A DNA stretch of 64,000 nucleotides from an uncultured Syntrophobacterales bacterium (GTDB lineage: Bacteria; Desulfobacterota; Binatia; UBA9968; JAJDTQ01), in contig CAYTMJ010000001.1 of the NCBI GenBank assembly GCA_964438895.1, positions 223,746 through 287,745 on the forward strand, given 5' to 3'. The notes under the pieces were generated by a model. The model was not told the origin of the DNA, ran no database searches, and saw nothing but the letters and a program-made list of their open reading frames with translations. The translations under genes were made by a program, and so were the position numbers. Positions within the stretch are counted from its first letter, which is position 1; each line of letters opens with the position of its first letter. Shown in pieces: positions 1,399 through 62,391 of the stretch.

Positions 1399-1420
1399 CC
1401 AAAAACAAAGCCCTGGCTGA

Positions 1421-1448: not shown

Positions 1449-1662
1449 TGTCGGAATTGACCAAGACCCTCAATCCCGAAAGGCTAGAGAGCCTAGGTCT
1501 CAGTCACCTCGCAGCTACATAAGTCATTCATATTTTGACCACCTCCTTTCCGTGCTGACCGGATCTTAGGGGAGCAAGGGGGTGTTTGTCAAACTTTTAC
1601 TCGATCTTGAGGGGCCAACGACGCACAGGTGGGATCGAAATGTGCCCCTATCATGGTCGTAT

Positions 1663-2265
1663 TTAAGCGTCCGCGAGGCGCTTCACAGCGAACGTAGCGG
1701 CATTACGTACCCGCACATCGGGATCTTCGGTGGCAGCTTTCCTGAGAGCGGCCAGCTCTTCTATACCAACCGCGAGAAATTTGGTTAGGCTTGTTACCGC
1801 CGCCACTCGGACCAATGGCTCAGAGTCCTCCATAGACCCGAGCAACAAGCCGGAAAGTCCAGCCGCCCCAATATCCCGCAGGCAGTAGACCGCCATTCGA
1901 CGTTGGGTGGGCGATCCATCGCGGACCAGCAACTTAAGACGTAGCATTACCTCCGGGTAGGAAGCACCGAGGTCCGCCAGCAACAATTGCGTCGCCCATC
2001 GGATATCTTGATCGCCACTCCCGAGCCCCTGAACGAGCACTTCGAGGCAAGGTGCGGATGGGCGGGCTATCTGGCCAAGCGTGTAGGCGATGGTCCAAAG
2101 TGGCGAAATGAGGAACTGAGCATCAAGCACCCGTTCAACGCCCGGCTCCTCAACAGCCAGAGCCACCAGGCCTTCTACTGCACGTCGGACTTTAGCCTTG
2201 TCGGCTCCCTGTAACGCATCCAACAATGGTGTCATGCGCCCGTGAAGTGTTACGTTCTGAGCCAT
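1663..2265 (-). CDS. HEAT/PBS-lyase-like repeat protein
   Basis: 200 aa with repeated helical Leu/Ala/Val-rich units and repeated 'RVRNAA/VRVAAV' motifs typical of HEAT repeats. Confidence 0.55.
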   Translation of the reverse strand: MAQNVTLHGRMTPLLDALQGADKAKVRRAVEGLVALAVEEPGVERVLDAQFLISPLWTIAYTLGQIARPSAPCLEVLVQGLGSGDQDIRWATQLLLADLGASYPEVMLRLKLLVRDGSPTQRRMAVYCLRDIGAAGLSGLLLGSMEDSEPLVRVAAVTSLTKFLAVGIEELAALRKAATEDPDVRVRNAATFAVKRLADA

Positions 2266-2279
2266 GAGAACTGTTTACA

Positions 2280-3107
2280 CTAACGTGTTACCGTTTCACG
2301 TATCACGTCCCGTAGACGCCCCGGGTGATCCGTAGTGATGCCGTCTACGCCCAGCGCCAACAGCTTCTTCATTTCGTCCACCTCGTTGACAGTCCAGACG
2401 TGAACCTCGACGCCGAGGTTATGAGCAGCCGCTACCGACACCGGTGTCACGAGCGTCATACCTTGGTAGAAGGGTGGAATCTGGACCACTTGACCGGTGT
2501 GCTCCCGCGAAACCCGCCTTCCAGACCACAGGGCGGTCATGAAAGCATGGATCTCGTCCATAGAAAATCCCGTAGCGACGGGAAGGCCCCGGTCACGAAT
2601 CATCATGCGCACTGTTGCCATGGTTGCGTCGTCCTGAGCTGCCACTAGTAACTGCGGCGCTCTTTCGAACTCTTCGACGAGATCGAACAACGTTTCGATG
2701 GCCAACACTGACAACTCTTTGATCTCTACCGTCGTCTTGGCCTCGGCAAACTCGGAAAAGAACTCACGCAGGGTCGGAACTCGAATACCCTGCCCCCGGA
2801 ATGGGTAGGTAGCGCCTGCGTCGGCCGTGAACTGGAAGCCCGCGTCGAGCCTGGTCAGGCTGACCAGGTCCATTTCCCGCACTGCTCCGGCGCCGTTGGT
2901 CGTTCGCTGGACGGTATCGTCGTGGATGATCACGATCTCACCGTCGCGGGTTGCGTGCACGTCAAGCTCGATGTAAGTGGCGCCTTCCTCCAGGGCGCGA
3001 CGGAAGGAAACTAGGGTGTTCTCGGGCATAGTCCCAGCAGCACCTCGATGCCCGCCGATTCTAGGTGGTGGTTCTGCGAAGAATGAGTGTGGGAGGATCC
3101 TGCTCAT
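2280..3107 (-). CDS. Glycerophosphodiester phosphodiesterase (GDPD family)
   Basis: N-terminal motif HRGAAG..PENT followed by the E/D..H catalytic signature. Confidence 0.8.
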   Translation of the reverse strand: MSRILPHSFFAEPPPRIGGHRGAAGTMPENTLVSFRRALEEGATYIELDVHATRDGEIVIIHDDTVQRTTNGAGAVREMDLVSLTRLDAGFQFTADAGATYPFRGQGIRVPTLREFFSEFAEAKTTVEIKELSVLAIETLFDLVEEFERAPQLLVAAQDDATMATVRMMIRDRGLPVATGFSMDEIHAFMTALWSGRRVSREHTGQVVQIPPFYQGMTLVTPVSVAAAHNLGVEVHVWTVNEVDEMKKLLALGVDGITTDHPGRLRDVIRETVTR

Positions 3108-3152
3108 AGCTTACATGACTAGAAAAAAGAGCTGTGTCCGAGGGAATCCTTG

Positions 3153-3181
3153 AGTTTTTGGTCTTTGGGACGTATAATCCG
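3153..3181 (+). promoter_or_regulatory. Sigma70-like promoter (TTGAGT - 17 bp - TATAAT) upstream of the carboxylase operon
   Basis: Near-consensus -35 and -10 hexamers with 17-bp spacing, read directly from the sequence about 130 bp upstream of the first operon gene. Confidence 0.45.
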
Positions 3182-3313
3182 AAAGGTTCTTTTATAGTCC
3201 AGGATTCATCAACATTGAATAACCGCGGCGATCGTCCCGGGTCAAGAGAGAAACCGTTCAGGCAGCCTGCGGATTATATCGCGGCACCGAAAGGCGGCAG
3301 GTAGGGGGCGTTG

Positions 3314-4864
3314 ATGGCTGTAGAGGATCGACTTCTTAGACTGAAGGAATTGAACCGCCGCGCAAACCTCGGCGGTGGTGAGACACGCATACGTCGCCAG
3401 CACAAAGAAGGTAAGCTGCTGGCGCGCGAGCGCATTGAGATACTCCTAGACCCGGGTAGCTTCGTTGAGCTGGACCGCCTGCGGACCCACGAGTGCAACG
3501 ACTTCGACATGCAGGATCAGAAGATCCCAGGCGATGCTGTGGTCACAGGGTCCGGGGTCATCGATGGGCGCAACGTTTTCGTATACGCTCAGGATTTCAC
3601 CGTATTCGGAGGCAGCCTGAGCGGAGTGGTAGCGGACAAGATCTGCAAGGTCCAGGAGATGGCCATGCAGAACGGTGCTCCTATATTGGGGATAAACGAC
3701 TCCGGGGGAGCACGCATCCAGGAGGGAGTCGTCAGCCTAGACGGTTACGCCCGAATCTTCGCCAACAACGTCATGGCTTCGGGCGTTGTCCCGCAGATTT
3801 CTGCCATCATGGGACCGTGCGCGGGCGGGGCCGTCTACTCGCCTGCGATTACTGACTTCATCTTCATGACCCGAAACACTGGGTACATGTTCATCACCGG
3901 GCCAGACGTGATCAAAACCGTTACCCACGAAGAGGTCACCAAGGAGGAGTTGGGCGGCGCTGAGACCCACACCCGTAAGAGCGGTGTCGCGCACTTCTCC
4001 GCGGATAACGACAAGGATTGCCTGCTCATGATGCGTGAACTCATGGGCTTTCTCCCGAGCAACAATCTGGAAGAGCCCCCGTTCCATCCCACGGAGGACG
4101 ACCCCAATCGGCGCGACCAACGTTTGCAACATGTAGTACCGGAGAATCCCAACCTTCCCTACGACATGCGGGACTTGATTGGGGCGGTAGTGGACGAGGG
4201 CTACTTATATGAAGTCCATAAAGAGTTCGCTCCCAACATGGTCGTGGCGTTCGGACGCCTGGGAGGCAAAACGGTTGGAATTGTCGCCAACCAACCGGCC
4301 CATCTAGCGGGATGTCTGGACATCAACGCCTCGGTGAAGGCCGCACGGTTCGTGCGATTCTGCGATTGCTTCAACATCCCGGTGATTACCTTCGTGGACG
4401 TTCCGGGCTTCCTTCCTGGAACCGATCAGGAGTACGACGGCATCATCCGCCACGGCGCGAAGTTACTGTTCGCGTACGCCGAGGCTACTGTACCGAAGAT
4501 CACGGTCATTACCCGAAAAGCGTACGGCGGCGGTTACATCGTCATGGCCAGTAAATTTCTACGTGGCGACGTCAACCTGGCGTATCCGGCTTCCGAGATC
4601 GCGGTAATGGGTCCAGAGGGAGCCATCAACATCGTTTTCCGCAACGAGCTCAAGGAGGCGAAAGACGAGAAGAAGACCCGACAGAAGCTGGTCGACGACT
4701 ACCGGCGAAAATTCGCCAACCCCTTTCGGTCGGCAGAGCTGGGCAACCTCGATGCCATCATCGTGCCGGAGGACACACGTCCCACACTCATTCGCACGCT
4801 AGAAATGCTTAAGAAGAAGCGCGACAATCATCACCCCAAAAAGCACGGCAACATCCCGCTTTAG
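3314..4864 (+). CDS. pccB: Acyl-CoA (propionyl-/acetyl-CoA) carboxylase carboxyltransferase subunit (PccB/AccD5-like)
   Basis: ~517 aa with the typical N-terminus RLKELNRRANLGGGE..RQHKEGKL. ATG at 3314 is taken as the start; the ORF track begins at TTG 3311. Confidence 0.9.
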   Translation: MAVEDRLLRLKELNRRANLGGGETRIRRQHKEGKLLARERIEILLDPGSFVELDRLRTHECNDFDMQDQKIPGDAVVTGSGVIDGRNVFVYAQDFTVFGGSLSGVVADKICKVQEMAMQNGAPILGINDSGGARIQEGVVSLDGYARIFANNVMASGVVPQISAIMGPCAGGAVYSPAITDFIFMTRNTGYMFITGPDVIKTVTHEEVTKEELGGAETHTRKSGVAHFSADNDKDCLLMMRELMGFLPSNNLEEPPFHPTEDDPNRRDQRLQHVVPENPNLPYDMRDLIGAVVDEGYLYEVHKEFAPNMVVAFGRLGGKTVGIVANQPAHLAGCLDINASVKAARFVRFCDCFNIPVITFVDVPGFLPGTDQEYDGIIRHGAKLLFAYAEATVPKITVITRKAYGGGYIVMASKFLRGDVNLAYPASEIAVMGPEGAINIVFRNELKEAKDEKKTRQKLVDDYRRKFANPFRSAELGNLDAIIVPEDTRPTLIRTLEMLKKKRDNHHPKKHGNIPL

Positions 4865-24854: not shown

Positions 24855-25098
24855 CAAGGGTCGGCAGGCCCCCTTTTTCCTGCGCGAAGGTGAGGTGCGA
24901 TTCCTTCTGTATGCACCAACCGCATTGATAACTATTCAGAATCAATAGAAGGTCCAAAAGGGTGATTGTGAATCAGAGTTGCTACGGTAGATACTCTACA
25001 GTTATAAGTGGAACTACTGGCATGCTTTCGAGATCGATCAACATATAGAACAAGATCTTTTCAACAATGGTAGCCATTAGGAAGCTGACGGTTTTTCC

Positions 25099-26049
25099 AT
25101 GAAAACGGTAAGTTTTTTGGCTTTAGGGGCTTTTTCTTATCAGTTGGAGCCTGTTATTTCACTGCTACGGTCAGATTATCGTCACCAGGTCGAGTTTATA
25201 CCGCAAAGCGACCTCAACGAATCTTTGGATCGTTTTTCTCTAAATACAGACCTCATTGTAACGGTGCATTCAATAGGTGATGGGCTTTCTGAGTTTCTAA
25301 ATATGGCAAGGAATTCGGGGATCCTATCTCTTACTATCCAAGATGGAATTATTGAACATTGTCACGCTTGGCTGAAGCCCCGTTCACGCAACTTCTATCG
25401 ACCAATCCTCACAGATAAGATTGCTGTTATGGGATCGTTTTCCCGGGATATTCTAATTGCGTGGGGTGCAGAACCTAATTCTATTGCAATCACCGGCTTG
25501 CCAAGAATGGATTATTTGCCCGAAATACCTGCTCCTTTTGGAGATAGTTTGCTTTTGACATGTGCAAATACCCCTTTTTATGATGACGATACCAAAATGC
25601 ACTTTAAGCAGTTTATGATGCATTTGATTAATGAATTTGAAACTCGTCACATAGACTATGTAGCCCGCCTACCTAAGTCGGTATATGAACTTCTCGAATA
25701 TAGAATTCCAAAAGAATCATACTCAGATTCGTCTGATAGGAGATCCCTCAGAGAGGATTTAGGTAGATCGAGTGCAGTACTTACGACTATGAGTACTGTC
25801 GCCCTCGAGGCGATGGCATGCCATCGCCCCACAGCGATAATCAACCCAGAAAATATGACCCAGTATTTTCATACGCCGTGGACCATAAGCTCAACAGACC
25901 AAGCCTCCAAAGTGATTTCTGAATTATTATCGGCTCCCGCTGAAAAGATGATATTTCAAAATTATGTGTTGAGCCAACATCTAAGGATCGACAACTCTTC
26001 AACCGATCGCGTATGTCAACTCATTAACACCATGCTCCTGGAATCGTAA
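25099..26049 (+). CDS. Putative surface-polysaccharide biosynthesis protein (GT-B-like glycosyl/glycerophosphotransferase-like)
   Basis: Low GC and a Rossmann-like C-terminal half resembling capsule or teichoic-acid-type transferases. The assignment is tentative. Confidence 0.4.
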   Translation: MKTVSFLALGAFSYQLEPVISLLRSDYRHQVEFIPQSDLNESLDRFSLNTDLIVTVHSIGDGLSEFLNMARNSGILSLTIQDGIIEHCHAWLKPRSRNFYRPILTDKIAVMGSFSRDILIAWGAEPNSIAITGLPRMDYLPEIPAPFGDSLLLTCANTPFYDDDTKMHFKQFMMHLINEFETRHIDYVARLPKSVYELLEYRIPKESYSDSSDRRSLREDLGRSSAVLTTMSTVALEAMACHRPTAIINPENMTQYFHTPWTISSTDQASKVISELLSAPAEKMIFQNYVLSQHLRIDNSSTDRVCQLINTMLLES

Positions 26050-26761
26050 AGAGGGCTTGTTTATTGTTTATCCCCGCGCAATACACCCAGTCTGCTGCCA
26101 TCCGGCCTGTTTGTGGTCTTTTGGTCTAACCTAGCCATATTGGGGTAGCCGTGGCCCAGTCGCGCCTAACACATCAAGAACCTCGAGGAGCCGGTTCGAA
26201 AAACGGTGTCATAGCCGGTCACATTTACCTTAGCGATCCATCATTGGGCCTGCGATTACCCGGGTGGGTTAGGCGGCTCAGATCAGGGTGTGCTTGGCGA
26301 ATTCCGCCCCCCTATCGAAGATGAGGGAGCGTCAGAAGGCCGCGGCAGGCAGCGCTCTGACGGTCCAGACCTTTGATCCGGATTTCGATGCTGGCGATGC
26401 GTTCGTCAAGGTAGTCGGCTGCTTTTGTCTCAGCACTACCATTCAGCTGGAATTGACTCTCCTACGCTCCTCTGCCGCAAGGACATAAGCACAGCGACAC
26501 CAAAAACAGGTTTTGTCTTTGAGCAAATAATCTAGAGTAACCACTCAGAACATAAGCTGGTATGATTTCTACTGGGTCGTGGAGCCTTCCTACCGGTCGA
26601 ATCGCCGCAATGTAGATCGTACAATACCGGCAAAACGACAAGATTGCCTTTCACAGCACGTGGCGGCAGGTTAAGCGATCGCAAACAGCGCTGCCACATA
26701 AATATTGGTTGTTTTTTGCAGTAAAGAACGGAAAGATCTAATTGGGGATTCGAGATTAGAT

Positions 26762-28627
26762 ATGTGTGGAATATTTGCGGTAATCCAGAAGTCGACGCCT
26801 ATTTGCCGAGAAAGGCTGACGGCATGCGTCGAACTCCTCAATCACCGCGGGCCAGACTTTCAGAATATTTCGATAAGCGAGGAGGAAGTTGCTACACCGG
26901 CCGGGCCGATGAAACTACATATCGGCATGGCACATACGCGCCTCTCGATCATTGACATAGATGCCAGGTCGAATCAGCCCTACCTCGGGGAAGATGGTTC
27001 TAGCTTAGTATATAATGGCGAGATCTATAATTTTCGCGAAGTCAAAAGAAGGATGCGCCCACACACGGATTTTTCAACTCAAGGAGATACAGAACTACTG
27101 TTCCACTCCCTACGTTCCACTGGAGGGGAAAGCCTGAAAGAACTCAATGGGATGTGGGCTTTTGCATTCTGGAATGCCAAAGGCAAGCACCTTTTGGCCG
27201 GCCGGGACCGTTATGGAGAAAAGCCAATATTCTATTTCGTTGATGACACGGTGGTTTGCCTGTCTTCCGAAATCAAACCTATCCTCCACTACCTAAGCCG
27301 ACCGGCTCGTTTCTCCCGAGACGCTATTACCTCTTACCTTTGCCACGGTATCGCTTTTCCTCCCGCCGATGGATCCACCCACGTTCCTGGTATTCGCCAG
27401 GTTCGCCCATCCCATTACCTGGTATTTAATCCGCGCGAATGGTCAATCAACGAAACCTCGTACTTCGACGCGGGGAGTGAAATCGTGGACGACGCGGACG
27501 TCACCACAGACGACTTAGCTACTGCATTGGAAGAGGCTGTGTTGTCCCGATTGCTTTCCGATCGCCCAGTCAGTTTACTTTTATCCGGTGGTATTGACAG
27601 TACGCTCATACTCTCAGTGCTCGTTTCCAGCGGCCTGCAAGACCGCGTTCAATGTTTCATCGGAGAGACGGGAGTTTCCGATGATGCCATTTATGCGCGT
27701 GAATGCGTTACCCTATTCGGGATCACAGCTCGTACAATTCACCTGGACTATGGACAAACGTCCTTTTCTCGCTTCCTTGACATCTGCTCTCATCAAGAAA
27801 AGCCATTCTCTCTAAACGGCAATGCCATTGCCATGCCTGAGATGTACGAAGCGATTAGTCAAAATAACGTGCCTGTGGTCCTAGACGGTAGTGGTGGGGA
27901 CGAAGTATTTGGCGGTTACTGGGATCGGTATACCAATTTCTTGGTGCGTGATGCTGTCAGGCAAAATGACCTTTCCACCTTGAGTGCTCTATACGAAGCC
28001 AATCGAGACACTCCTGAAGTTATTAAATTTTTAGATCGCGCATTCGCAAAAGCGACAGCACATGGTGACCCGACCCCGGCCCCGCCGCCGCGGCTTGCCC
28101 GCGACTATTTATATCCAGACAGTCTCGTTGAAACTTCACCAGACCCCCTCGCCACCCACGCTGGCTCTTTTACTGAAGCTTTGACCAAAGATGCTTTCTC
28201 CGGCCGATTAGGGGAATGGCTTTGGCAAAACGATCGCAACGCCATGATGAATGGTGTTGAAAACAGAAGCCCGTTTTTGGATCACCGTCTGGTTCGTTTT
28301 TTGGGCACAGGTAGCAAACGTAAATTTGTCGCGGGATGGAACAAACATGAGCTGCGTCTCGCCTACGACAAACTGACCCCGATGCCAACCCAATGGCGGC
28401 GCCAGAAGCAGGGATTCCGGTGGCAAAGCTCATGGTTTATTCGGGAAAATAAAGCGAAAACCATGGAAATAATTGCCAATTCGCAGTTGCTCCAGGCCCA
28501 TGTGGATGTTGATGCGTTTCTAAGTAACATTAAGTCAGGACGCCTAAACATCGAAAACCAGCTTACTCCTCGTCTCCTATGCGTTGGGGCGTTAGAACAT
28601 GTGATGAGCGTCTCAGCGGAACACTAG
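26762..28627 (+). CDS. Asparagine synthase (glutamine-hydrolysing) family amidotransferase, AsnB/WbpS-like
   Basis: MCGI N-terminal nucleophile of class-II glutamine amidotransferases, followed by an asparagine-synthase domain with SGGIDS. The start is placed at ATG 26762. Confidence 0.85.
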   Translation: MCGIFAVIQKSTPICRERLTACVELLNHRGPDFQNISISEEEVATPAGPMKLHIGMAHTRLSIIDIDARSNQPYLGEDGSSLVYNGEIYNFREVKRRMRPHTDFSTQGDTELLFHSLRSTGGESLKELNGMWAFAFWNAKGKHLLAGRDRYGEKPIFYFVDDTVVCLSSEIKPILHYLSRPARFSRDAITSYLCHGIAFPPADGSTHVPGIRQVRPSHYLVFNPREWSINETSYFDAGSEIVDDADVTTDDLATALEEAVLSRLLSDRPVSLLLSGGIDSTLILSVLVSSGLQDRVQCFIGETGVSDDAIYARECVTLFGITARTIHLDYGQTSFSRFLDICSHQEKPFSLNGNAIAMPEMYEAISQNNVPVVLDGSGGDEVFGGYWDRYTNFLVRDAVRQNDLSTLSALYEANRDTPEVIKFLDRAFAKATAHGDPTPAPPPRLARDYLYPDSLVETSPDPLATHAGSFTEALTKDAFSGRLGEWLWQNDRNAMMNGVENRSPFLDHRLVRFLGTGSKRKFVAGWNKHELRLAYDKLTPMPTQWRRQKQGFRWQSSWFIRENKAKTMEIIANSQLLQAHVDVDAFLSNIKSGRLNIENQLTPRLLCVGALEHVMSVSAEH

Positions 28628-28884
28628 CTGTTTAGTCCCGAAGAGTATGTGCCCTGTGCCCTAAAATTCACCCCTTATCCCAGATAGACTCCCTCGACGA
28701 ACGCGGGGCTTCCCGGAGCGAATGGTCAATCCTTCCACAAAACGCGGATTATAATCACCCGACCTCATATGAGTAGTAGCGAACAACCCCAGAATCTGGT
28801 TCGAACACAGCAAGGGTAGCTTGTCAGTGCGGGCGATTCTTGCTAGGACGGGTCATGGATAGCATAACGATGCTGGTATGATTG

Positions 28885-28916
28885 AAAAGCCCAGGCGGAA
28901 GCCTGGGCTTTTTTTG
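28885..28916 (+). terminator. Rho-independent terminator (aaaagcccaggc-ggaa-gcctgggcttttttt)
   Basis: A perfect 11-bp GC-rich stem with a tetraloop and a T7 run, and an A-run on the other side. Confidence 0.7.
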
Positions 28917-28949
28917 TAACGTTTAGAGGGGTTCGCCTCGAGGTGAAGG

Positions 28950-32784: not shown

Positions 32785-33192
32785 AACTCCCTTCTCCCAC
32801 TTCGACAAAGTATATTAAACTTAAGTAATCTACTATATCAGGTATTACAAACCAAGCAAGAGCAGCGGCACAAACTGCAAGCTTGGCGCTTTGGAAACGT
32901 TTTTGCTGTTAAGCCGCTTCAGCTAACGGGAACAATTGTTAAGAGCGAGCGCGGTGGAGCTGCAATTTCAGCGCAAAGCGTCACAAATGTCTTCTTCGCG
33001 CTATATCAGCGTTTAGGTTATGCGGGATGCGCGTCACATTCGGGACGAAGGACAGCGATCACACGTTGGAGCAGGAAAATCAGTTCAGTTGGTGGTAGTC
33101 TGCGGGATGTACAATCTCTAGCTCGTCATTCGAGCTTACAGATGACACAGAAATATATTGAGGTGTCAGAAGATGCCTGCAGGAGAGTAGTT
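32785..33192 (+). pseudogene. Tyrosine recombinase (phage integrase) C-terminal fragment with no start codon
   Basis: In-frame translation gives ...GCASHSGRRTAITRW...LRDVQSLARHSSLQMTQKYIEV..., matching the integrase box II/III region (HxLRH..AT, LGHSS..MT..Y) with the catalytic Tyr. There is no Met or N-terminal domain upstream, since a stop codon sits at 32782. Confidence 0.6.
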
Positions 33193-33604
33193 GGGTAGTA
33201 GCTTCGCAGTGAGAAGCGAAAAGTACAGGAATAGCGGTTTTCATAGCTGAAACTCTATAATTACGCGGCAGAGCTTAGCCACCTGGAATAAGACATAACA
33301 AGCCAAGCTCCGTCGCCGCGCCTCCGGAACACGACACGATGGCCGTCCCACGGACGTCGCCATGGGTAATCGCTCCCCTGGTCCCCAGAGGACCCTGGCG
33401 CTCCGCTAATACGGAAGGTTCGCCAGGCGCACTAACCCATGCAGAAGAAACGCACCCATTATAGAACTAGATAGCCTGGAAACCCTAAACTTCACTCAGC
33501 AGGATATCGATTCTTTACGGAAAATTTACGACGATTAGCGGAACGACGACGGTACGTGCGCGAAGCCTGCGGGGTGGCCAGGATGATTACAGATAGTCAC
33601 CCGA

Positions 33605-35062
33605 CTATGAAGTTGCTTCATGGGTTCCATTTTGGCAACAACTGGATGTGATGAACAGGGAGTCTTCCTCCTCCAACGAATCCGGCAGCTGCTCCAACTT
33701 ACTTCGCTCCCACCACTGCTTGGCTAGGTTATAATGGGACAACACTATAAGACGCGTAGCGATTAAAAGCCGCGCTGCGGCAGCACTACTCAATCCGCCC
33801 TGGGAGTCGGCGTGTGCTACTGCAGAATGCGCAAGATCGAAAAACGCCTTTTCTGACATCTGGTTGGCACTTTTAACGGCAGCGAACACAGACCGCCCCC
33901 AGCCATCACCTTTCGGCTGCATTAGAGAGGAACTTTCAGGACGTTCCCACAGGGATGGCAGGGTAAAACGTGACCGAACCAGCTTGACCGCATTTTGATA
34001 TTTGGGCTTCATAATGCGCGAATTAAATAAGAGGCTTGCTCCGATCTCCGCCTTTCCGGCACGCATAAAGTACTCGCCTGCCCTAGCCAGTATCTCAGCC
34101 TTCTCCTGAGTCGCGTCAACAAGTTGGTTGGCGTGCGACTGAAAATGACCGCCAGCCTTTTCATAGTCTCCTCTTGCAACCGCCATAATTGCCTTTGTGC
34201 GCTCATCAAAAACGGGGGGGGTCTTGATACTTGTGGGGCGGGGAGGCGGGGTACTACTAAGCAAATCGGGCCATACTTGCTGCTCTTCCATCCAGTTAAA
34301 TAACTGATCAAAAAGAGGGCGGTTACTTTCAGCCCACGATATCAGACGTGGAAGTTCTGGAAGCTTCATGCAGATTGGTATGGGCGTCCGGGCACTTTCC
34401 AACAAGTCAGAAAATTTATGAGAATTGCCCCGCACTGGTATGAATGGTGTCCGCGCTCGGCAGGAAGCATACATGCCGTGATGACGACCGCTAATCAGAA
34501 GGCCGGCCGTGCGTAACGTTTTTACAAGAGATGACCATGTCATTTCCCGCATGTCGATATGACCCCACTCGTCACTCTTAGGCCCGGAAAGCCATACAAA
34601 ACCGAAATCATCTGAGAAAATATCTGTAATAACGACGGCGCCGCCCAAGTCCGAATACGGTGCAGTTTCATCTACTGGGGCGAAATACGACAAGTCGAGC
34701 ATAGCGTGAACATCAATCCCGTGGTTCTTGGCCAGGTCAGATTTGCTGGAATAACCCCGTACAGTAAACCCGTCGAGTTTCACAAGAACGGAGTCGTAAG
34801 TGTTCGGATTGCTGTCCCACAAACTATTTATCAAAAACGTTTTTTTTCCATCGGCTTGAGCTTCTGCAAGTAGTCTCATTTTTACGTGAAACGCCGAAGA
34901 CGAATGATGCATAGACCCCTCGCCATTTACAACCAAGGCATCATAGTCATCCCCTTCGTTGACAATTTCGCCAATTCGTAAAAGCCGACTACGGATCACC
35001 TCACTAACCGCGTGAGAACCGCAATGATAATTTGCATGATCTCCAGCAAACTTAAATCTCAC
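33605..35062 (-). CDS. Polysaccharide pyruvyl transferase-family protein (CsaB/WcaK-like) with a C-terminal helical extension
   Basis: The N-terminal ~250 aa align by eye to the PS_pyruv_trans pattern (FAGDHANYHCGSHAV; DALVVNGEGS). Local GC is lower. Confidence 0.5.
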   Translation of the reverse strand: MRFKFAGDHANYHCGSHAVSEVIRSRLLRIGEIVNEGDDYDALVVNGEGSMHHSSSAFHVKMRLLAEAQADGKKTFLINSLWDSNPNTYDSVLVKLDGFTVRGYSSKSDLAKNHGIDVHAMLDLSYFAPVDETAPYSDLGGAVVITDIFSDDFGFVWLSGPKSDEWGHIDMREMTWSSLVKTLRTAGLLISGRHHGMYASCRARTPFIPVRGNSHKFSDLLESARTPIPICMKLPELPRLISWAESNRPLFDQLFNWMEEQQVWPDLLSSTPPPRPTSIKTPPVFDERTKAIMAVARGDYEKAGGHFQSHANQLVDATQEKAEILARAGEYFMRAGKAEIGASLLFNSRIMKPKYQNAVKLVRSRFTLPSLWERPESSSLMQPKGDGWGRSVFAAVKSANQMSEKAFFDLAHSAVAHADSQGGLSSAAAARLLIATRLIVLSHYNLAKQWWERSKLEQLPDSLEEEDSLFITSSCCQNGTHEATS

Positions 35063-37161
35063 CTTATGCTTTCCTCCTTATAAAGCCACTTCCTGAGCAA
35101 GTCGGAGGATGCTTTTACTGATCCAGAAAAACCATCCTCCGGGGCGCCGGACACAACCCGACATGAAGGGGCCCAAATCTGGGTTGTTGAATCCCGACGA
35201 CGCGATTGTGCTAGCGCATGAAATGGATGGACTGCCATAATCGTCGGTGTGCCCACAGCTCCCGCCAAATGACCCGTGGTGGAGGGAACTGAGATGACAA
35301 AATCGAGCTCTAACAGTAGGGCGGCTAATGCTTCGAAATTGTTCATCATGTCAATGCCATCAAATCGACACAGGTTCTGTGAACCCGGAACGTTGGAGCG
35401 GTCCAACTCAGCTTCCTTGCCAAATTGAAGGTCCACGATCACAGCGGGGAGTCCCGCCAAACAACTAATCCAATCCGATAGCGACGAGATCCGTTTTAGT
35501 CGACGTACGCCGCCAAGATGCGTGCGCCAGAAGAGTCCAACTTTCGGTTGTCCCCCGAGTTTGGCGAGGCGACCCTTCATCTCGCGCCTTAACCCGGAAC
35601 TGGGAATTACCACCCTTTGCCGGGTAGGGAGATCCGCCTCTGATTTCGTAACAATGCTTTCCAAATCCCGTAAGCACAAAACAATATCGAACTTTGGCAT
35701 CTGCAAATAAAGACTTTCGTCAACGAATGGCCTTAAAACAGGTGGTACCAAGCCTCCATTGTCGCTGCCTGACTTCGCAACGCCCACGACCGAATATTTC
35801 CGACCGCGGGACACAAGACGTTGCATCCGTTTATCAACGGCAAGTGTCATAGATTTACAACCAGAAATATCATTTAAACGATCCGCAAAATCGAGCAGCC
35901 GCACCTCGTCACCCGCTTCCGTAAATCCAACCACCAAAAGAGTGCGCCCTCGCAGCGAATCTAGGGCGATAGTTGGGCTGGCTAAGTTTGGTAATTCCTC
36001 ACGCCAAAAGCGTCGACTGACAGAGGTCGCGCGCCACTGAAACGATAAGCCACCCCGGAACCATCCGGTAGCCAGCCATGCTAAATTTTGAATATCAGAG
36101 TCAACGCCGCCAATCAGATTCTTCTTGACCAGCCGACGCAGAGCCAAAGACACGCCCGTTCGGTTTTTGAGGGCAAGCTCGTAAGGTAATCGCATTAAGA
36201 TTGCCTTGCTCTCGTTTCTCTCACACTCCAGGAGGAAACTCATTGCTGCAATGTGCCCCAGATAATGTGCTGCCTCCGACAACGGCGCTATCCATGATTG
36301 ATGCCCCCGTTCGGCGAAAATAGTTGGCAAATTATTCAGAAGTATCTCAACCTCACTTTTATCGCCAAGCTTAAGCAAGGCCAAAGCCCAATTGCCTAAA
36401 TGTTCTGAGTCTCCCTTCTTCACCAACCGTTTTAACTTCCCGATATTACGCACAATCTGTTGCGTGGAAAAGTCTTTCGTAATTGCAGCCAATCTATTGA
36501 CTGCCGTCACAAAATACCCACTACACGATTCCATCTGGTCAGAAATTATTGAATTATATTCAGCGGCCGCTTTCCCAATTTGTCCTGTATTTTGAAAGCA
36601 CAACGCGATATTAACCTTACGTTTTGTAGTGAGGTCGACTTGTTTGAATAGTAAATAGGTGGCTAGAGCCGAGGAAAAATTTCGTTTGCGTAGAAACGCG
36701 TTCCCTAAGATATCCAAGTCGGTAGCCTTGGGAGGATCGTCATCTACCCTACGTGCCCCATCGATCATTGACTGCGCAACAGCGCGTAAGCAGAGGGTCA
36801 TGCCTTGACGAAAGACAACGGCTTCCAAGCGCTCAGCTGGAACAGCTTCAAATAACTGGTTGAATTGCTGCGACTTTTGGATAGTATCGATAATAGCAGC
36901 AGCGTCTGATTCCCCGCCCTGTAAACCAGCAATTCGTTCTCCAGCCTCGATAGCTATATGAAGCTTCTTGGCGTCGATCGCATATGTCGCGAGCCGCTTC
37001 CAGTTGGCAATTGAATTGGGATTTTCGTTACAAATAGCCCCCTGAAGTTGGCAGGCGTGGGAAAAATGCCGAGCTAAATAGAAGTTCTCGGCGCGCTTGG
37101 CGCGGAGCCAGGCCATTCCTAAAAAAGGAATATGTCTATAAAATGAAAAAGCACGATGCAT
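35059..37161 (-). CDS. TPR-like N-terminal domain fused to a glycosyltransferase family 9 (heptosyltransferase-like) domain
   Basis: The C-terminal ~330 aa carry a GT9 signature (FDGIDMMNNFEALAALLLELDFVISVPSTTGHLAGAVGTPTIMAV). The N-terminal half is repetitive and helical. The gene overlaps its upstream neighbour by 4 bp. Confidence 0.65.
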   Translation of the reverse strand: MHRAFSFYRHIPFLGMAWLRAKRAENFYLARHFSHACQLQGAICNENPNSIANWKRLATYAIDAKKLHIAIEAGERIAGLQGGESDAAAIIDTIQKSQQFNQLFEAVPAERLEAVVFRQGMTLCLRAVAQSMIDGARRVDDDPPKATDLDILGNAFLRKRNFSSALATYLLFKQVDLTTKRKVNIALCFQNTGQIGKAAAEYNSIISDQMESCSGYFVTAVNRLAAITKDFSTQQIVRNIGKLKRLVKKGDSEHLGNWALALLKLGDKSEVEILLNNLPTIFAERGHQSWIAPLSEAAHYLGHIAAMSFLLECERNESKAILMRLPYELALKNRTGVSLALRRLVKKNLIGGVDSDIQNLAWLATGWFRGGLSFQWRATSVSRRFWREELPNLASPTIALDSLRGRTLLVVGFTEAGDEVRLLDFADRLNDISGCKSMTLAVDKRMQRLVSRGRKYSVVGVAKSGSDNGGLVPPVLRPFVDESLYLQMPKFDIVLCLRDLESIVTKSEADLPTRQRVVIPSSGLRREMKGRLAKLGGQPKVGLFWRTHLGGVRRLKRISSLSDWISCLAGLPAVIVDLQFGKEAELDRSNVPGSQNLCRFDGIDMMNNFEALAALLLELDFVISVPSTTGHLAGAVGTPTIMAVHPFHALAQSRRRDSTTQIWAPSCRVVSGAPEDGFSGSVKASSDLLRKWLYKEESIR

Positions 37162-37237
37162 TCAAGGGAACCTCTGATAATACACGTTTTCTCTGATCCC
37201 GCACTTCTACCCCGCGGTCTATCGCATCGCTTGCTCC

Positions 37238-37528
37238 CTATTCAATCAGCTTGGCATCCGTAATATCCAAGATTGTTTCAAACCCTTCTTCCCAACCCCA
37301 AAACTCTGCCCCACTAACACCCTCCAGTTCCCCAGACAAGCCAACAAGCCTGGCTCCATCACCGTTCTCATACATCTCCTCAAGCCACTCCTCAGCTTCC
37401 GCCGCACTACCCATATCATCAGGTGATGCTTGTTCGCCCTTGAGGGTTACTGCTTCGTGGATACGGTCATCAGTCATTGGCTCAAACGTGATTTCGAAGA
37501 AAATCCTATATGCGGTCATAATCAGCAA
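37238..37528 (-). CDS. Small highly acidic protein (96 aa), paralog family member A1
   Basis: Conserved N-terminus (AYRxFFxITFEP) and C-terminus (FWGWEEGFETILDITDAKLIE) shared with two other copies. About 27 Asp/Glu versus 5 Lys/Arg. Confidence 0.6.
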   Translation of the reverse strand: MLIMTAYRIFFEITFEPMTDDRIHEAVTLKGEQASPDDMGSAAEAEEWLEEMYENGDGARLVGLSGELEGVSGAEFWGWEEGFETILDITDAKLIE

Positions 37529-37565
37529 CTCCGCGCTGTTTAGTTAGATCGTTGTTAGAGAACTC

Positions 37566-38366
37566 CTATTTATCCAGGTAGTTTGTAGCACTGCCCAAGA
37601 ACCTCCCATATTCGCACCCTGCCGGATGGTCGGGGCAAACCGAGGTTTCGAGAGTTTCCTTAATATCGAAGAGAACGTTCTCCACCCACTCGACATTTCC
37701 TTCATAGGGTAAAATGGTGGTGTTGAATTTCATCCACGCAACACCAGGGTCATCAGCACTGATCATGCCTTCAATGCCGATATGTTGCCCATCCACATAA
37801 ACAAAATATCCAACATCACTAACGACAAAATCTTTCTGTCTCATGATCCATTGATACATATCCATTTGTCGCTTGAAACTGCCCTTCCATTCCCCATTGA
37901 GGGTAACAGGCGAAGGATTGTTGCCCAATTGAGCGGTGCTCTTATAGTCCACGATGTGGAGTAGTTGTTTTTGCTGATCGATCCAAACATCATCCACGCC
38001 GCCCCCAAAGCGAATGTTTGTTTTCTTATGCACAAAGCTGAAGTACTCGTCGGACACTCCAAAGTGAAGAGCATTCATCCATTTTTCAATATTGTCGTGC
38101 TGAAACGGTATAAGGTGGGACAGGTTGTTTTGGACCATTAGGGGGTGTGGTTTTTCTCCTCTGCAACTGTCGAAATCGCGCTTGAGGAGGGTGTCGGTGT
38201 TGGTATTTAGGTTGAAGCCCGGCATTGATGGGAATTGAATCCCTGCCACCCGGTCCAACCAAAAACAAGCCGGACAACGTACATACATTTCAACTTTGCT
38301 TCGAGATAGCTCGTAGGGTTCAGTTTTGGAAGGATCGTATCGTCCTCTATTTCGGGGCATTTTCAC
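37566..38366 (-). CDS. Cas4-like PD-(D/E)XK nuclease (RecB-family nuclease domain with a 4-Cys cluster)
   Basis: N-terminal YVRCPACFWL (matching the Cas4 YxxCPRxxW motif), motif II GGVDDVWID, motif III LHIVDYKST, a QxxxY motif (RQMDMYQ) and a C-terminal Cys pair (CPDHPAGC). Confidence 0.6.
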   Translation of the reverse strand: MKMPRNRGRYDPSKTEPYELSRSKVEMYVRCPACFWLDRVAGIQFPSMPGFNLNTNTDTLLKRDFDSCRGEKPHPLMVQNNLSHLIPFQHDNIEKWMNALHFGVSDEYFSFVHKKTNIRFGGGVDDVWIDQQKQLLHIVDYKSTAQLGNNPSPVTLNGEWKGSFKRQMDMYQWIMRQKDFVVSDVGYFVYVDGQHIGIEGMISADDPGVAWMKFNTTILPYEGNVEWVENVLFDIKETLETSVCPDHPAGCEYGRFLGSATNYLDK

Positions 38367-38506
38367 ACCTCAAATCAAATCTAGCCTGTTGAAATAATGA
38401 GACTGTTATTCTTCACACTTTTGCGCTCTACGAAGAATCGTAAGCATGTTCGATGAACCGCATACATAATATAGCGAGTTCATTCGCTTGCTCTACCACC
38501 GCTATC

Positions 38507-38800
38507 TCCCTATTCAATCAGCTTGGCATCCGTAATATCCAAGATTGTTTCAAACCCTTCTTCCCAACCCCAAAATTCTGCCCCACCAACGCCTTCCAGT
38601 TCCCCAGACAAGCCAACAAGCTTTGTTGCGTCTCCGTTCATAAACATCTTTTCAAGCCACTCTCCAGCATCGTCCGCACCATCCATATCATCAGGCGAGC
38701 TTTGTTCGCCCTTGAGGGTGATTGCCGCGTGGGTACCGTCATCTCCCAACGGCTCAAATGTGATGGTGAAAAAAACCCTATATGCAGGCATAGGCAGCAA
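38507..38800. repeat. Gene-length direct repeat (~85% nt identity) with 37235-37528
   Basis: The two small acidic genes are near-identical at the DNA level and flank the nuclease gene, while the flanking sequence has diverged. Confidence 0.7.
38510..38800 (-). CDS. Small highly acidic protein (96 aa), paralog A2
   Basis: About 80% aa identity to A1. Confidence 0.6.
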   Translation of the reverse strand: MLPMPAYRVFFTITFEPLGDDGTHAAITLKGEQSSPDDMDGADDAGEWLEKMFMNGDATKLVGLSGELEGVGGAEFWGWEEGFETILDITDAKLIE

Positions 38801-38964
38801 TACTCCAATCCGTACAATAAATAGGCCAGTCTGGAAGGACGGCTACGATTGATGTTGAGCAGATGAAGAAACTCACAGACAGGGGGATCGGTGCACCGTT
38901 GACTGATCACGGAGTGAAATCGACAGAACAAGCGTCTACCGAGTTCTCGGCAACTAGGTTGAGA

Positions 38965-39465
38965 TCAGTCGGAAATCTTATCCCCATTCTTGTACGTTCC
39001 GGTCCAATTCTCATTCACAGTACCGTCTCTATAGTAATCGACCCAAGCGCCTTCTCGCTTACCGTTCTTGTAGATTCCTTTCATCCATAACTGACCGTTT
39101 CCGTGGTACCCCACCCAAGGGCCGCTCGTCGTTTCGTCTAACTCTGCGCCAAGTTTTCCATCGGGTTTGTAAGAAACCCACGGACCCTCTTCCTTACCGT
39201 TCTTATAGGTTCCTTTCATCCATAACTGACCGCTTTCGTAGTAGTGAGCCCACGGACCGTGCTGTTTCCCGTCCTTGAACGACCCCTGAATTCTCCCCGT
39301 CACCTTCCCTGTGAAGGGCACATCGGCCGACTTCTCATAATAGAGACCGTCCCATTTCACCAAGTCTTGGTAGTTCACGACCGTCCCCTCGCTGCGAAAG
39401 TGGGGAACAAGAAAACCATAAACGCCAGTGCTGTGAAGATGTGATTCACGCGGGAATTCTCTCAC
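38965..39465 (-). CDS. MORN-repeat variant protein (YwqK-like, MORN_2)
   Basis: Repeated 'G.W..Y..NG.L...G.YKNGK.EG.W' units. Confidence 0.7.
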   Translation of the reverse strand: MREFPRESHLHSTGVYGFLVPHFRSEGTVVNYQDLVKWDGLYYEKSADVPFTGKVTGRIQGSFKDGKQHGPWAHYYESGQLWMKGTYKNGKEEGPWVSYKPDGKLGAELDETTSGPWVGYHGNGQLWMKGIYKNGKREGAWVDYYRDGTVNENWTGTYKNGDKISD

Positions 39466-43375: not shown

Positions 43376-43604
43376 AGGCGCGTCGAATTGCAGATCAGCT
43401 TCTCGATGATATCTGTGTCCGTAGGTTTAGTTGACGTTCTTACTGTTGTTTAATGTCTACCCTATTGAGGCAAGGGCTCCATACATCCCGGAGCGTGGGA
43501 CCACTCTTTAATTTAGTACAAGTTTCTGATGAACTATCGGCAAGTAAGCATTTTACACCTTTCTAACATAGTCTATTTCCAATGCGAGTTGGAGAACGGC
43601 GCCT

Positions 43605-43898
43605 ATGCCCGCATATAAGGTTTTCTTCACAATCACATTTTCTCCAGTAGACGATAAAATCAAGCAGGAGCCAATCACCCATAAGGGGGATTTAACTTCA
43701 CCTATTGATATGCGCAGTGGGGAGGATGCTGAAAAATGGCTGAAGGGTCTGTTCATGGATGGGCCTTCTGGCTGCAGTGGGCACGAATCCAAATTAGTGG
43801 ATAGCGCTAATCACCCGCACGCGCAGGCTACCTTTTGGGATTGGAACGATGGGTTTGACACCACCTTGGACATTACGGCTACCCAGCTCATTGAATAG
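43605..43898 (+). CDS. Small acidic protein, paralog A3 (diverged)
   Basis: Same length as A1/A2 and the same terminal motifs (MPAYKVFFTITF...DITATQLIE), at about 40% identity. Confidence 0.55.
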   Translation: MPAYKVFFTITFSPVDDKIKQEPITHKGDLTSPIDMRSGEDAEKWLKGLFMDGPSGCSGHESKLVDSANHPHAQATFWDWNDGFDTTLDITATQLIE

Positions 43899-44548
43899 GG
43901 ACAACGCAATGGCACCGCGAAGTCCATCATGGGGCATGCAAGATTAAGCCCCTCACCTCAAAGAAGCCCATCTCGCCCGCTTCAAATGCTCCCTGCTAGG
44001 GGTATCTCAATTCGAACCAAAAAAAACGCGCTGGAGAAATATGTCCTCACTCACTTCTCACTTCGTTGTAGTTCTTGACGTTTTTAGCTCTCGAATCTAG
44101 ATTCGCACGGTTTTCTATGCCCAGCTTTCTATACACTGTTGGCGCTTATGAAGAATCGTAAGATGTTATGATGAAACGAATGCGTGAAACGGCGCCCTCA
44201 TGCACACGCTATGGAACACCAAGCCCTGGTTATCAATGCAATGGTAAGTGCTGTAATCGCATTTAACACCTACGATACGGGCAGCATGGAATATCTGCCG
44301 GAGGGGATTCTTGGAACGTATTATTTTCTGGTTTTTTCATGATGCTCTCTAGGTCGCCTTCGCGGTGGGCGCTAATTGTCGTCTATGTATCCCTGGTTGC
44401 CGATGGAGTTTCTCGTTGGTCGTCCCGTGATCCGAGGGGATTACGTTGCGCGTTACCTTTGGAAACAGACAATCGGGCATGTAACTGCCGTTTAACGTCT
44501 GCCGCAACCCGCTACGGTTTAGTTTTCAGTTAACAGGAGACTATTGCA

Positions 44549-49536: not shown

Positions 49537-50220
49537 ATGAGAAAGCTACTAACGGCGCTGGTCGGACTGCTCTGTTTGTGGATTCCCATCCTCATTGTAA
49601 CAGCAGAGCAGATTGTCGGTCAGGCCTCAGTTATTGACGGCGACACAATCGAAATTCACGGCACCCGAATTCGTTTTCATGGGATTGATGCTCCCGAAAG
49701 CGGCCAGGTTTGCATGGTACACGAGAGACGACTCCGCTGTGGGAAGTTGGCAGGCCAGGCCCTCGCAAAGAAAATTGGTAGCGATACTGTCACCTGCATT
49801 CCAACGGACCAAGATCGTTACGGCCGTGTTGTCGCAATTTGCAGTGTTACGGGCGAGGATCTAAATGCCTGGATGGTCCGAGAAGGCTGGGCTCTAGCGT
49901 ACCGCCAGTACTCTCTAGACTACATCAACGAAGAAAACTCGGCCTCTGCATCGGGACGACGGCTCTGGAATACGGAGTTTACCCCGCCGTGGGAGTGGCG
50001 ACGTCGAAAACATGCTTCGGTGTCTCAGCAGAGTTCAGGTCCCTCACCTCAATCGGGCTGTAACATCAAGGGAAACATCAACAGAAAAGGCGAACGCATC
50101 TACCATATTCCTGGTGGACACTACTACGACGGGACAGTTATAACAGCTTCGAAAAGCGAGCGCTGGTTTTGCAGTGAAATGGAAGCAAAGACTGCTGGCT
50201 GGAGGCGATCGAAACAATAG
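49537..50220 (+). CDS. Secreted staphylococcal-nuclease-like thermonuclease with an extra Cys-containing C-terminal domain
   Basis: A signal peptide, then the SNase core (VIDGDTIEIHG...GIDAPE), then a C-terminal ~60 aa (CNIKGNINRKGERIYHIPGGHYY...). Confidence 0.7.
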   Translation: MRKLLTALVGLLCLWIPILIVTAEQIVGQASVIDGDTIEIHGTRIRFHGIDAPESGQVCMVHERRLRCGKLAGQALAKKIGSDTVTCIPTDQDRYGRVVAICSVTGEDLNAWMVREGWALAYRQYSLDYINEENSASASGRRLWNTEFTPPWEWRRRKHASVSQQSSGPSPQSGCNIKGNINRKGERIYHIPGGHYYDGTVITASKSERWFCSEMEAKTAGWRRSKQ

Positions 50221-55793: not shown

Positions 55794-56273
55794 CTATTTA
55801 CAATTCTTAATTTTGGTTGTCCCAGCAGGCATTTTTGTTCTACAGAAGGTCGCCGTGTCATCCTGATCGAGGTAATCCGTCAATTTCGCATTACTTAAGT
55901 CCGCATCAGTCAAATCTGCACGCGTTAGATTCGCGCGGGTCAGGTTTGCGCCCGTTAGGTTCGCGCGGGTCAGGTTTGTGCCACGGAAGTCAGCGCGACT
56001 AAGATCCGCATCGCGAAGGTCTGCACCACTAAGGTCCTCACCGCTCAAATCTGCCTCACCGAGATCGCACTTCACGCAGCTTTTTGAAGACTTCAAAGTG
56101 TTCACGTTCTTCGTCACGATATCCTCTCCGCCGCAACTTTGGAGGAAGAGAATAACCGATACCGAAAATAACATTCCAAGTAGCCGATTAGCCGTCATTG
56201 CTAGACCTCCGCTAAACAGTCGATGAGCCGTACATTTCCCGTATTGCCAGATTTCAATCTCATACAGCCCCAC
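55794..56273 (-). CDS. Secreted pentapeptide-repeat protein
   Basis: A signal peptide followed by about 14 A(D/N)L(S/T)xx repeats, which also show as DNA-level periodicity at 55900-56050. Confidence 0.8.
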
Positions 56274-62199: not shown

Positions 62200-62391
62200 G
62201 TGGAATTAGTTCTAATTTTAGGGGGCGTCTGGTTTCTTAGTTATGCTTATCAACGTAGCAGGCAAGCGCAGAAGGACTACGTGGACACAAAGATTCAAGA
62301 ACTGCACGACACAATCATGGAAGAAGTGCGGGCAATTGTAAACGGGGAGGTAGCAAACGAGGAGGTAACAAACGAGGAGGTAACAAAGTAG
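62200..62391 (+). CDS. Small single-TM protein with an (NEEVT) tandem-repeat tail
   Basis: An N-terminal TM helix (LVLILGGVWFLSYAY). The 3' end contains a 15-bp tandem repeat (aacgaggaggtaaca, about 2.5 copies). Confidence 0.3.
   Translation: MELVLILGGVWFLSYAYQRSRQAQKDYVDTKIQELHDTIMEEVRAIVNGEVANEEVTNEEVTK

Follow-up and report, generated by a model that had tools for sequence, protein, structure and literature searches.

When a gene for a stand-alone, Cas4-like nuclease is found enclosed between two copies of a gene for a small and extremely acidic protein, the question is whether the three form a nuclease/inhibitor module or have only come to lie side by side. Such a locus is present in a 64,000-nucleotide stretch of contig CAYTMJ010000001.1 from an uncultured Syntrophobacterales bacterium (the whole stretch is referred to here as the window), for which an initial annotation made from the letters alone had suggested a toxin/immunity or nuclease/inhibitor module, or alternatively the remnant of a mobile element. 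The acidic genes are termed A1 and A2 where they flank the nuclease, and A3 for a diverged third copy elsewhere in the window. Our analysis suggests that these are probably unrelated genes which recombination has brought side by side in a flexible chromosomal region, and not a functional pair.

The three genes are arranged head to tail on the minus strand in the order A2, nuclease, A1, as had been described, with their starts now corrected. The listed open reading frames (ORFs) are 38510–38800 for A2, 37566–38366 for the nuclease (266 amino acids, aa) and 37238–37528 for A1. The acidic ORFs, described as 96 aa long, are real but shorter. In A3, in every homologue from the databases and in their gene calls, the protein begins at an inner ATG (MPAY.../MTAY...), three codons inside the listed TTG; A1 and A2 thus start at 37519 and 38791, giving 93 aa each. 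The nuclease starts at ATG 38360 (MPRN...), the same position as in its homologues. The features discussed here are hence A2, the upstream copy (38510–38791, minus strand), the 264-aa nuclease (37566–38360, minus strand) and A1, its hyper-acidic paralogue (37238–37519, minus strand), with 143 nt between the nuclease and A2 and 46 nt between the nuclease and A1. The same A2-nuclease-A1 arrangement was present in contigs of at least three independent metagenome samples. A3, a 97-aa paralogue on the plus strand at 43605–43898, where the initial annotation had placed it, forms an inverted repeat with both A1 and A2, and its protein identity to them is 44–52% depending on the alignment.

A1 and A2 constitute a gene-level direct repeat of 300 nt (37225–37524 and 38497–38796, 83–84% identical, spacing 1272 nt), and a three-way DNA alignment and comparison of the repeat ends limited it to the GGAG ribosome-binding site, the coding sequence (CDS) and about 13 nt past the stop codon. 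Differences between the two CDSs are concentrated at the 5′ end, with 44 of the 45 differing positions (out of 282 nt) falling in the first 216 nt. The last 66 nt of the CDS and the following GGAG are identical, and this 70-nt 3′ tract (37234–37303 in A1, 38506–38575 in A2) suggests recent and continuing gene conversion between the copies. A2 retains a 5′ leader of about 35 nt (CTATTT...GGAG), which is shared with A3 and with A genes on two further contigs (L007 and L088), while the leader of A1 is cut to about 15 nt by the proximity of the nuclease gene, whose stop codon is 46 nt upstream. The unique 940 nt bearing the nuclease sit exactly between the two A homology units. Scans for promoters and terminators around the locus found no more sites than in shuffled sequence, and scans of the window detected no tandem or CRISPR array, no tRNA and no Rfam family.

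Evidence on the relationship between the nuclease and the A genes comes from other genomes. A scan of species-representative genomes detected 80 loci with a nuclease homologue, the majority in marine Gammaproteobacteria (Halieaceae/NOR5, Porticoccaceae, OM182 and metagenome-assembled genomes (MAGs) of Pseudomonadales) and others in Alphaproteobacteria (SAR116, and MAGs labelled Pelagibacteraceae or Rhodobacteraceae). The nuclease ORF was callable in 75 of the 80, and for these a hidden Markov model (HMM) of the A family was run against all six-frame ORFs within about ±6 kb. No A homologue was found within about 6 kb in any of the 75 loci, and the only A matches in this locus search were on the window species' own contigs and on one single-gene contig (L007, protein P0002). 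Small, strongly acidic ORFs of any kind were at background level, with one case within 600 nt of the nuclease (L052, an unrelated ORF of 157 aa) against about 1.2 expected (all ORFs were taken as neighbours, and the background density was 0.014 per kb). The genes found next to the nuclease are ordinary, metabolic ones and show lineage-specific synteny, including FAD monooxygenase, P450, old-yellow-enzyme-like, YceI-like, SDR, quinone oxidoreductase and other genes, and clustering of neighbours revealed no partner common across lineages. As A homologues are missing and acidic ORFs occur at background frequency, the nuclease family appears to work without a dedicated acidic neighbour.

These counts bear on the module suggested by the initial annotation. 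It is not supported, since the acidic family was not found beside a PD-(D/E)XK nuclease in the other genomes examined, an outcome that the annotation itself had listed as refuting. A rival reading is a lineage-specific pair, where a resident acidic protein was recruited and duplicated as a DNA mimic or active-site blocker restraining a foreign nuclease. In favour of this reading, A1 and A2 are the most acidic of the window ORFs, flank the nuclease on the same strand, are under purifying selection, and keep an arrangement that is fixed in several samples. We nevertheless consider it unlikely, since all 75 other nuclease loci have no such partner, no relative of A lies beside a PD-(D/E)XK nuclease, and both A3 and the A gene of a related genome (contig L098, below) are located away from any nuclease. 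Such pairs typically overlap or are coupled, whereas gaps of 143 and 46 nt separate the genes here, and a coupling signal that follows each A stop codon is not used for the nuclease start. Colicin and pyocin DNase-immunity pairs (such as E9-Im9) and barnase-barstar likewise combine a nuclease gene with a neighbouring gene for a small and very acidic protein, but the window pair differs from them in not being conserved across genomes and in having genes that neither overlap nor are coupled. Furthermore, the window nuclease has no delivery, translocation or receptor domain and is of the PD-(D/E)XK rather than the HNH type, and the predicted A fold is neither a four-helix bundle nor barstar-like. 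The suggestion that A3 is an orphan immunity copy for this nuclease likewise found no support.

One observation from a distant relative of the nuclease was recorded in favour of an inhibitor. The nuclease gene of the viral contig L102 is followed after 6 nt by a helical, hyper-acidic ORF of 51 aa (2390–2545; D+E 20, K+R 3). This ORF is unrelated in sequence to the A family and is a single anecdote.

The A family itself is nearly an orphan. Searching 1.84 billion cluster representatives exhaustively with an HMM recovered four real members, P0124 (A3-like, 97 aa), P0125 (86 aa), P0126 (103 aa) and P0127 (92 aa, covering only two thirds of the profile at E = 8e-8), the remaining matches being low-complexity sequence, and a word-indexed search with A2 found only A2 itself, A1 and one variant with 80% identity. 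Beyond self-matches and the element carrying P0127, no member was detected in 50,697 phage genomes, IMG/VR or plasmid collections, and a scan of JGI metagenome contigs added only copies of known members. All members are hyper-acidic (D+E 17–26, K+R 3–8), and the homologues, which are 32–66% identical, retain the same hydrophobic pattern.

In three independent contexts outside this species (L088, L090 and L098) no PD-(D/E)XK nuclease is found beside the A gene, and two of these contexts show what A may originally have accompanied. On L088 (P0125), the next ORF begins 8 nt past the A stop and encodes a protein of at least 257 aa (257+) with no family match. P0127 (contigs L090–L094 and L097) lies in an order of CmoA-like phage methyltransferase (phrog_4752, E = 1.5e-55), A, a 308-aa protein and a C5 DNA methylase; on L090, where this order was read over 79–4748, only 9 nt separate the A stop from the gene for the 308-aa protein, which also has no family match, and the opposite strand carries a GIY-YIG homing endonuclease upstream. 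By gene content the surroundings of P0127 are phage-like DNA. The two downstream proteins show no likeness to each other, to the window, to any library searched or to toxin families. A-family members outside this species thus lead a tightly coupled gene pair, the second ORF beginning 8–9 nt past the stop of A.

A trace of this organisation is present in the window. Every A gene is followed by the pattern TA(G/A) GGAG N6-7 ATG after its stop (37225–37237, 38497–38509 and 43899–43915 in the window, 320–330 on L088 and 2667–2677 on L090), in which the ATG is the true start of the downstream gene on L088 and L090 and opens only 2–24 codons in the window copies and on L007. We infer that the GGAG-N6-7-ATG after the window A genes is a relic of translational coupling to a lost partner. 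Type II toxin-antitoxin cassettes are similar in placing an acidic gene first and a larger gene 8–9 nt after its stop, as on L088 and L090, and the window copies resemble orphan antitoxins as solo remnants that keep the coupling signal; unlike these systems, however, the downstream proteins match no toxin family and A has no DNA-binding domain. With low confidence, and judging from charge, size and the coupled arrangement elsewhere, we suggest that the A proteins are small partners, similar to antitoxins, immunity proteins or anti-defence proteins, which bind or neutralise a different downstream protein that is now missing from the window.

Such an interpretation requires that the A ORFs are genes. 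A1, A2 and A3 contain 24, 21 and 16 acidic residues (D+E) against 5, 5 and 8 basic residues (K+R), with isoelectric points of 4.05, 4.05 and 4.7 (4.72), hence the strong acidity reported initially holds but the ratio of about 27 to 5 does not. A1 and A2 carry a net charge of about −16 to −19 in 93 aa, and none of the 67 window ORFs called comes close to them in acidity. The ratio of non-synonymous to synonymous substitution rates (dN/dS) between A1 and A2 is 0.36, and differences by codon position show an excess at the third position in the A frame (14/9/35 for A3 vs L098, 12/6/27 for A2 vs L007); because of this excess the A frame is taken as coding and the overlapping antisense ORFs as artefacts. 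A1, A2 and A3 most likely persist as solo copies under purifying selection.

Ser/Pro-rich ORFs were observed antisense to all three A genes (37251–37547 and 38453–38852 on the plus strand, 43553–43792 on the minus strand). They are by-products of GAx-rich codons, and as those opposite A1 and A2 are longer than the genes (the one opposite A3 is shorter), naive longest-ORF calling can lose real A genes. The converse view, in which the A ORFs are themselves chance ORFs or the antisense of these plus-strand ORFs, has this overlap in its favour and is scarcely credible; it is effectively refuted by the codon-position excess and dN/dS, by the homologues and their retained hydrophobic pattern, by the conserved GGAG ribosome-binding site and by a compact structural model.

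This AlphaFold2 (AF2) model, built from eight sequences, predicts a β-β-α-β fold with moderate confidence (predicted local distance difference test (pLDDT) 72, predicted template modelling score (pTM) 0.64), with strands at 3–14, 24–31 and 80–92, a helix at 39–51 and a low-confidence, indel-prone section at 64–77. A fold search returned no PDB or BFVD match at E < 0.03, the top BFVD match being an uncharacterised siphovirus protein (E = 0.035), and the moderate-confidence model is unlike Im9, barstar, Ocr and ArdA and shows no resemblance to immunity proteins or DNA mimics. No PDB relative was found by sequence search, and comparison of A1–A3 and P0125–P0127 with Pfam, PHROGs and PADLOC (NCBIfam for A1–A3 only) gave nothing better than E = 0.08. 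The anti-restriction DNA mimics Ocr and ArdA, and other small acidic phage inhibitors such as T7 Gp2, share with A the small size and extreme negative charge, and P0127 is found in phage-like DNA among DNA methyltransferases; A nevertheless has no significant fold or sequence similarity to these proteins, and the window copies are chromosomal.

For the nuclease, a Pfam match above the gathering score (PF12705, PDDEXK_1, E = 3.5e-8, 34.1 bits vs a cut-off of 22) and the fold matches agree in assigning it to the PD-(D/E)XK superfamily. It falls below the Cas4 model TIGR00372 (13.1 bits, cut-off 65), has no match to PF01930 at E ≤ 0.1 in the Pfam search, and scores E = 1.4e-5 and 23.7 bits with the best PADLOC Cas4 model. 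An AF2 model of high confidence (pLDDT 92.6, pTM 0.89) gave weak Foldseek matches in the PDB (E ≥ 1.2e-3, template modelling (TM) scores 0.3–0.5), all of them to PD-(D/E)XK nucleases. The top match was a type I-C Cas4 (E = 1.2e-3, TM 0.42/0.49), followed by AddB, RecE, phage exonucleases, Exo5 and Dna2, and a profile search of PDB sequences returned only spurious cellulase matches and no relative.

An alignment of 38 family sequences has 16 invariant positions (C29, C32, D56, K60, D62, H111, D123, D124, D138, K140, Q165, Y169, Y188, D190, H245 and C249), every one of which is conserved in the window nuclease. These include the catalytic residues D123/D124, D138-x-K140 and Q165...Y169, invariant in 38 of 38 sequences, hence the active site is intact, as the initial annotation had proposed. 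The core with D, D-x-K and QxxxY is also found in AddB/RecB domains, RecE/lambda-exonuclease-like enzymes, Exo5 and Dna2, from which the window nuclease differs in being a single domain of 264 aa with no helicase partner nearby and with only weak fold matches (E ≥ 1e-3). Canonical Cas4 proteins possess one N-terminal and three C-terminal cysteines, whereas the four cysteines of the window nuclease are spaced 2 + 2 (CxxC at 29/32, then C242 and C249). The invariant metal-ligand set is C29, C32, H245 and C249, with position 242 a Cys in 32 of 38 sequences, and the pattern that best fits the putative metal site in the alignment is CxxC ... (C)-x2-H-x3-C, with an invariant His that sets it apart from Cas4.

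The description as a solo Cas4-like protein is sustained. Four conserved cysteines form the Fe-S module of Cas4, solo-Cas4 genes are enriched among environmental microbes with small genomes, and PF12705 has been treated as a Cas4-related set without major CRISPR-associated branches (Hudaiberdiev et al. 2017, PMC5704561). The window nuclease is similar to this set in being a RecB-like PD-(D/E)XK enzyme with a Cys-based metal site outside a CRISPR locus, in its patchy spread among environmental bacteria and in having Cas4 as its best structural match, but differs from solo-Cas4 in its sub-threshold TIGR00372 score, the missing PF01930 match and TM scores of 0.42–0.49 to Cas4. No CRISPR array is found near it, in line with the initial annotation (array and Rfam scans of the window), and its neighbours are the A genes and MORN-repeat, KdsB-like and weakly GT9-like genes, although cas1 and cas2 were not searched in every window ORF.

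A word-indexed search of 5.8 billion proteins (E ≤ 1e-3) placed at least 921 cluster representatives (clusters at 90% identity) in the nuclease family, mostly from marine Proteobacteria, with Gammaproteobacteria, Congregibacter litoralis, Planctomycetota and Betaproteobacteria among the named hosts. The top matches other than the window species are 51–63% identical over the full length, the best (63%) being from a gammaproteobacterial MAG, while no match was found in phage genomes and a single one, at 29% identity, in plasmids. The GC content of the nuclease gene is 46.5%, compared with 56–60% in the flanking core genes guaA and dnaE. Relatives of the window species with 83–89% identical GuaA are in the database, yet the nearest non-self nuclease is the gammaproteobacterial one at 63%; this distant affinity, together with the low GC, points to a foreign, horizontally acquired gene.

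More distant relatives were found on five IMG/VR contigs (L101–L105), where nucleases with 36–43% identity are part of tight, defence-type operons. Neighbours include an OLD-family ATPase and a UvrD helicase (L105), HerA (L102), an SNF2 helicase (L101), and an Eco57I-like methylase, a TrlF-family ATPase (500 bits, above cut-off) and a trypsin-like peptidase (L103). Comparable partners characterise known defence nucleases (Gabija-like OLD-ATPase + UvrD, HerA-associated, TrlF-ATPase/trypsin), while the window nuclease has no adjacent ATPase or helicase. To judge from these neighbourhoods, the wider family serves as a defence nuclease and the window subfamily (46–63% identical) stands alone.

How, then, did the nuclease come to lie between two A genes? 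Part of the answer is provided by L098, a 984-bp contig of a relative, on which the 3′ part of a gene for an F420H2-dependent quinone reductase is followed by an A3-type gene (P0124, the orthologue of A3) and the 5′ end of a 700-aa gene. These pieces align to window positions 46072–45799, 43590–43913 and 37303–36908 at 79–81% identity; contiguous in L098, they sit up to 9 kb apart in the window, hence the A paralogues mark rearrangement breakpoints. L098 has a single A gene in the place of A1, immediately upstream of the 700-aa gene, and no nuclease. The adjacency of A to the 700-aa gene and the 76-nt intergenic sequence (79% identity) are conserved between the two genomes, and A1 has kept the ancestral 3′ flank.

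This conserved adjacency has led us to consider whether the A proteins are an accessory or regulatory subunit of a downstream envelope or polysaccharide operon, with the nuclease an irrelevant insertion. In the window, the 700-aa gene (35059–37161, minus strand) lies 76 nt downstream of A1 and is followed by a 485-aa gene (33605–35062), all on the same strand with short gaps; the former has a weak C-terminal GT9 match in Pfam (E = 0.004, below cut-off) and the latter a pyruvyl-transferase match. The proposal is nonetheless improbable in our assessment, as A2, A3, P0125 and P0127 are not beside such genes, the single confirmation is from a close relative and could be plain shared ancestry, and the conserved coupling relic indicates a different ancestral partner.

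A further possibility is that the 1272-bp unit of one A gene plus nuclease is a mobile or excisable cassette, moving in and out by homologous recombination with A as portable homology. Several features are in keeping with this, as the direct repeats flank exactly one gene, their 70-nt identical tract is long enough for RecA recombination, A genes are located at the breakpoints between this genome and L098, the nuclease looks foreign and an integrase fragment lies 4 kb away. However, contigs of this species yielded no empty site or circular junction, nuclease and A do not travel together in any other genome examined, attC-like sites and a transposase are absent, and repeats that are 16% diverged imply an old event, hence we regard a cassette as doubtful. 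Integron gene cassettes were rejected on the lack of attC-like sites after the cassette ORFs; a scan of 32.6–46.5 kb found one palindromic match (35925–35978, both strands) inside the 700-aa gene, against a mean of 2.1 in shuffled sequence.

The sole deviating contig (L004/L096, 1841 bp, coverage 1.0) tracks the window through the MORN-repeat gene, A2 and the first ~100 nuclease codons and then switches abruptly to an unrelated gene, in sequence that the window does not contain. It was set aside as a variant without the 3′ part of the nuclease, since with 1× coverage and so abrupt a switch it is probably an assembly chimera.

The explanation that we favour, juxtaposition by recombination, has a horizontally acquired solo Cas4-like nuclease lodged between recombining A paralogues. 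As the nuclease segment is located exactly between two A homology units, it may have inserted into a tandem duplicate of A, or homology between A genes may have allowed Campbell-type or unequal recombination, followed by gene conversion of the 3′ end; L098, with one A gene upstream of the 700-aa gene and no nuclease, would retain the simpler state. By analogy with Cas4, AddB, RecE and Exo5, the nuclease would bind DNA ends and degrade or nick DNA in repair or defence, and would need no dedicated inhibitor to do so, as is the case in all other genomes examined.

Several points weigh against this explanation. It is striking that two same-strand acidic copies flank one nuclease at short distances, and the sampled population conserves the three genes, each of them intact. 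A comparison at family level cannot exclude a young, lineage-specific partnership, and the statement that A is never next to a nuclease rests on few cases, three informative contexts on short contigs of about 1–5 kb. With a pLDDT of 72, the A model makes the negative fold comparison weak evidence. The downstream partners on L088 and L090 are not detectably homologous and P0127 is a partial match, hence an ancestral two-gene cassette is tentative. Finally, the surrounding block is not a clean island, as core-type genes for BipA and a DEAD-box helicase are found inside it. A more novel scheme, in which the A family is a new class of hyper-acidic, mobile-element-derived inhibitor that was duplicated and co-opted to gate a newly acquired nuclease, its genes also providing homology for the capture of foreign genes, is a long shot.

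The block that holds the whole locus is 30.7 kb in length (31946–62635) and parts guaA, which ends at 31945, from dnaE, which starts at 62636. In two relatives (L099 and L100, contigs of 446 kb and 3.65 Mb, GuaA 89% and 83% identical) guaB-guaA is followed directly by dnaE-hflX-thrS-infC-rpmI-rplT-pheST; the nearest named GuaA proteins, at ~70% identity, belong to MAGs of Candidatus Binatia and 'Deltaproteobacteria'. The GC content of the block is mostly lower (0.46–0.55), and its accessory and core genes include a peroxiredoxin, the integrase fragment, the pyruvyl-transferase-like and weakly GT9-like genes, A-nuclease-A, MORN and Sel1 repeats, KdsB-like, TrmI, amidohydrolase, staphylococcal-nuclease and pirin genes, among others. 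The integrase fragment reported initially is real but weakly matched, being the C-terminal part of a tyrosine recombinase (HxxR...Y; 32785–33195, plus strand, PF00589 E = 7.3e-5) with no start codon. The mobile-element remnant of the initial annotation is thus partly upheld, by the lower-GC block with its integrase fragment that splits guaA from dnaE, and partly not, as core genes lie inside the block and no att direct repeats flank it. The block is a rearranged, mosaic and flexible segment rather than a clean island.

Other features were observed in and around the block. The MORN-repeat gene upstream of A2 (38965–39465, minus strand) has an internal repeat (39034–39259) with a 135-nt unit, and a shorter allele, 121 aa vs 166 aa, is present on one metagenome contig (L004, 205–570). 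A second nuclease gene, unrelated to the first, encodes a staphylococcal-nuclease homologue (49537–50220, PF00565 E = 1.2e-13). Two short tandem repeats were found, one with two copies of a 30-nt unit (55923–55997) and one with three copies of a 15-nt unit (AAACGAGGAGGTAAC, 62340–62387) about 250 nt upstream of dnaE. A second synteny break relative to L099 and L100 is located upstream of guaB (24870–28920), with a GC dip to 0.42 at 25–26 kb; both relatives have a ComM/Mg-chelatase-like gene there, L099 also a ParD/ParE pair and L100 an AAA-ATPase/PDDEXK_9 gene.

Should history alone explain the juxtaposition, the locus serves mainly as a caution, as a small acidic gene next to a nuclease does not suffice for calling an immunity pair, and comparison with other genomes overturns such a call here. 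The nearly orphan acidic family, whose paralogues mark rearrangement breakpoints, is a modestly useful by-product. Another is the nuclease family, a large, uncharacterised group of stand-alone PD-(D/E)XK enzymes with a Cys-Cys-His-Cys site, which occurs widely among marine bacterioplankton (OM60/NOR5, Porticoccaceae, SAR116 and others) and may supply DNA-end processing or defence in abundant marine bacteria.

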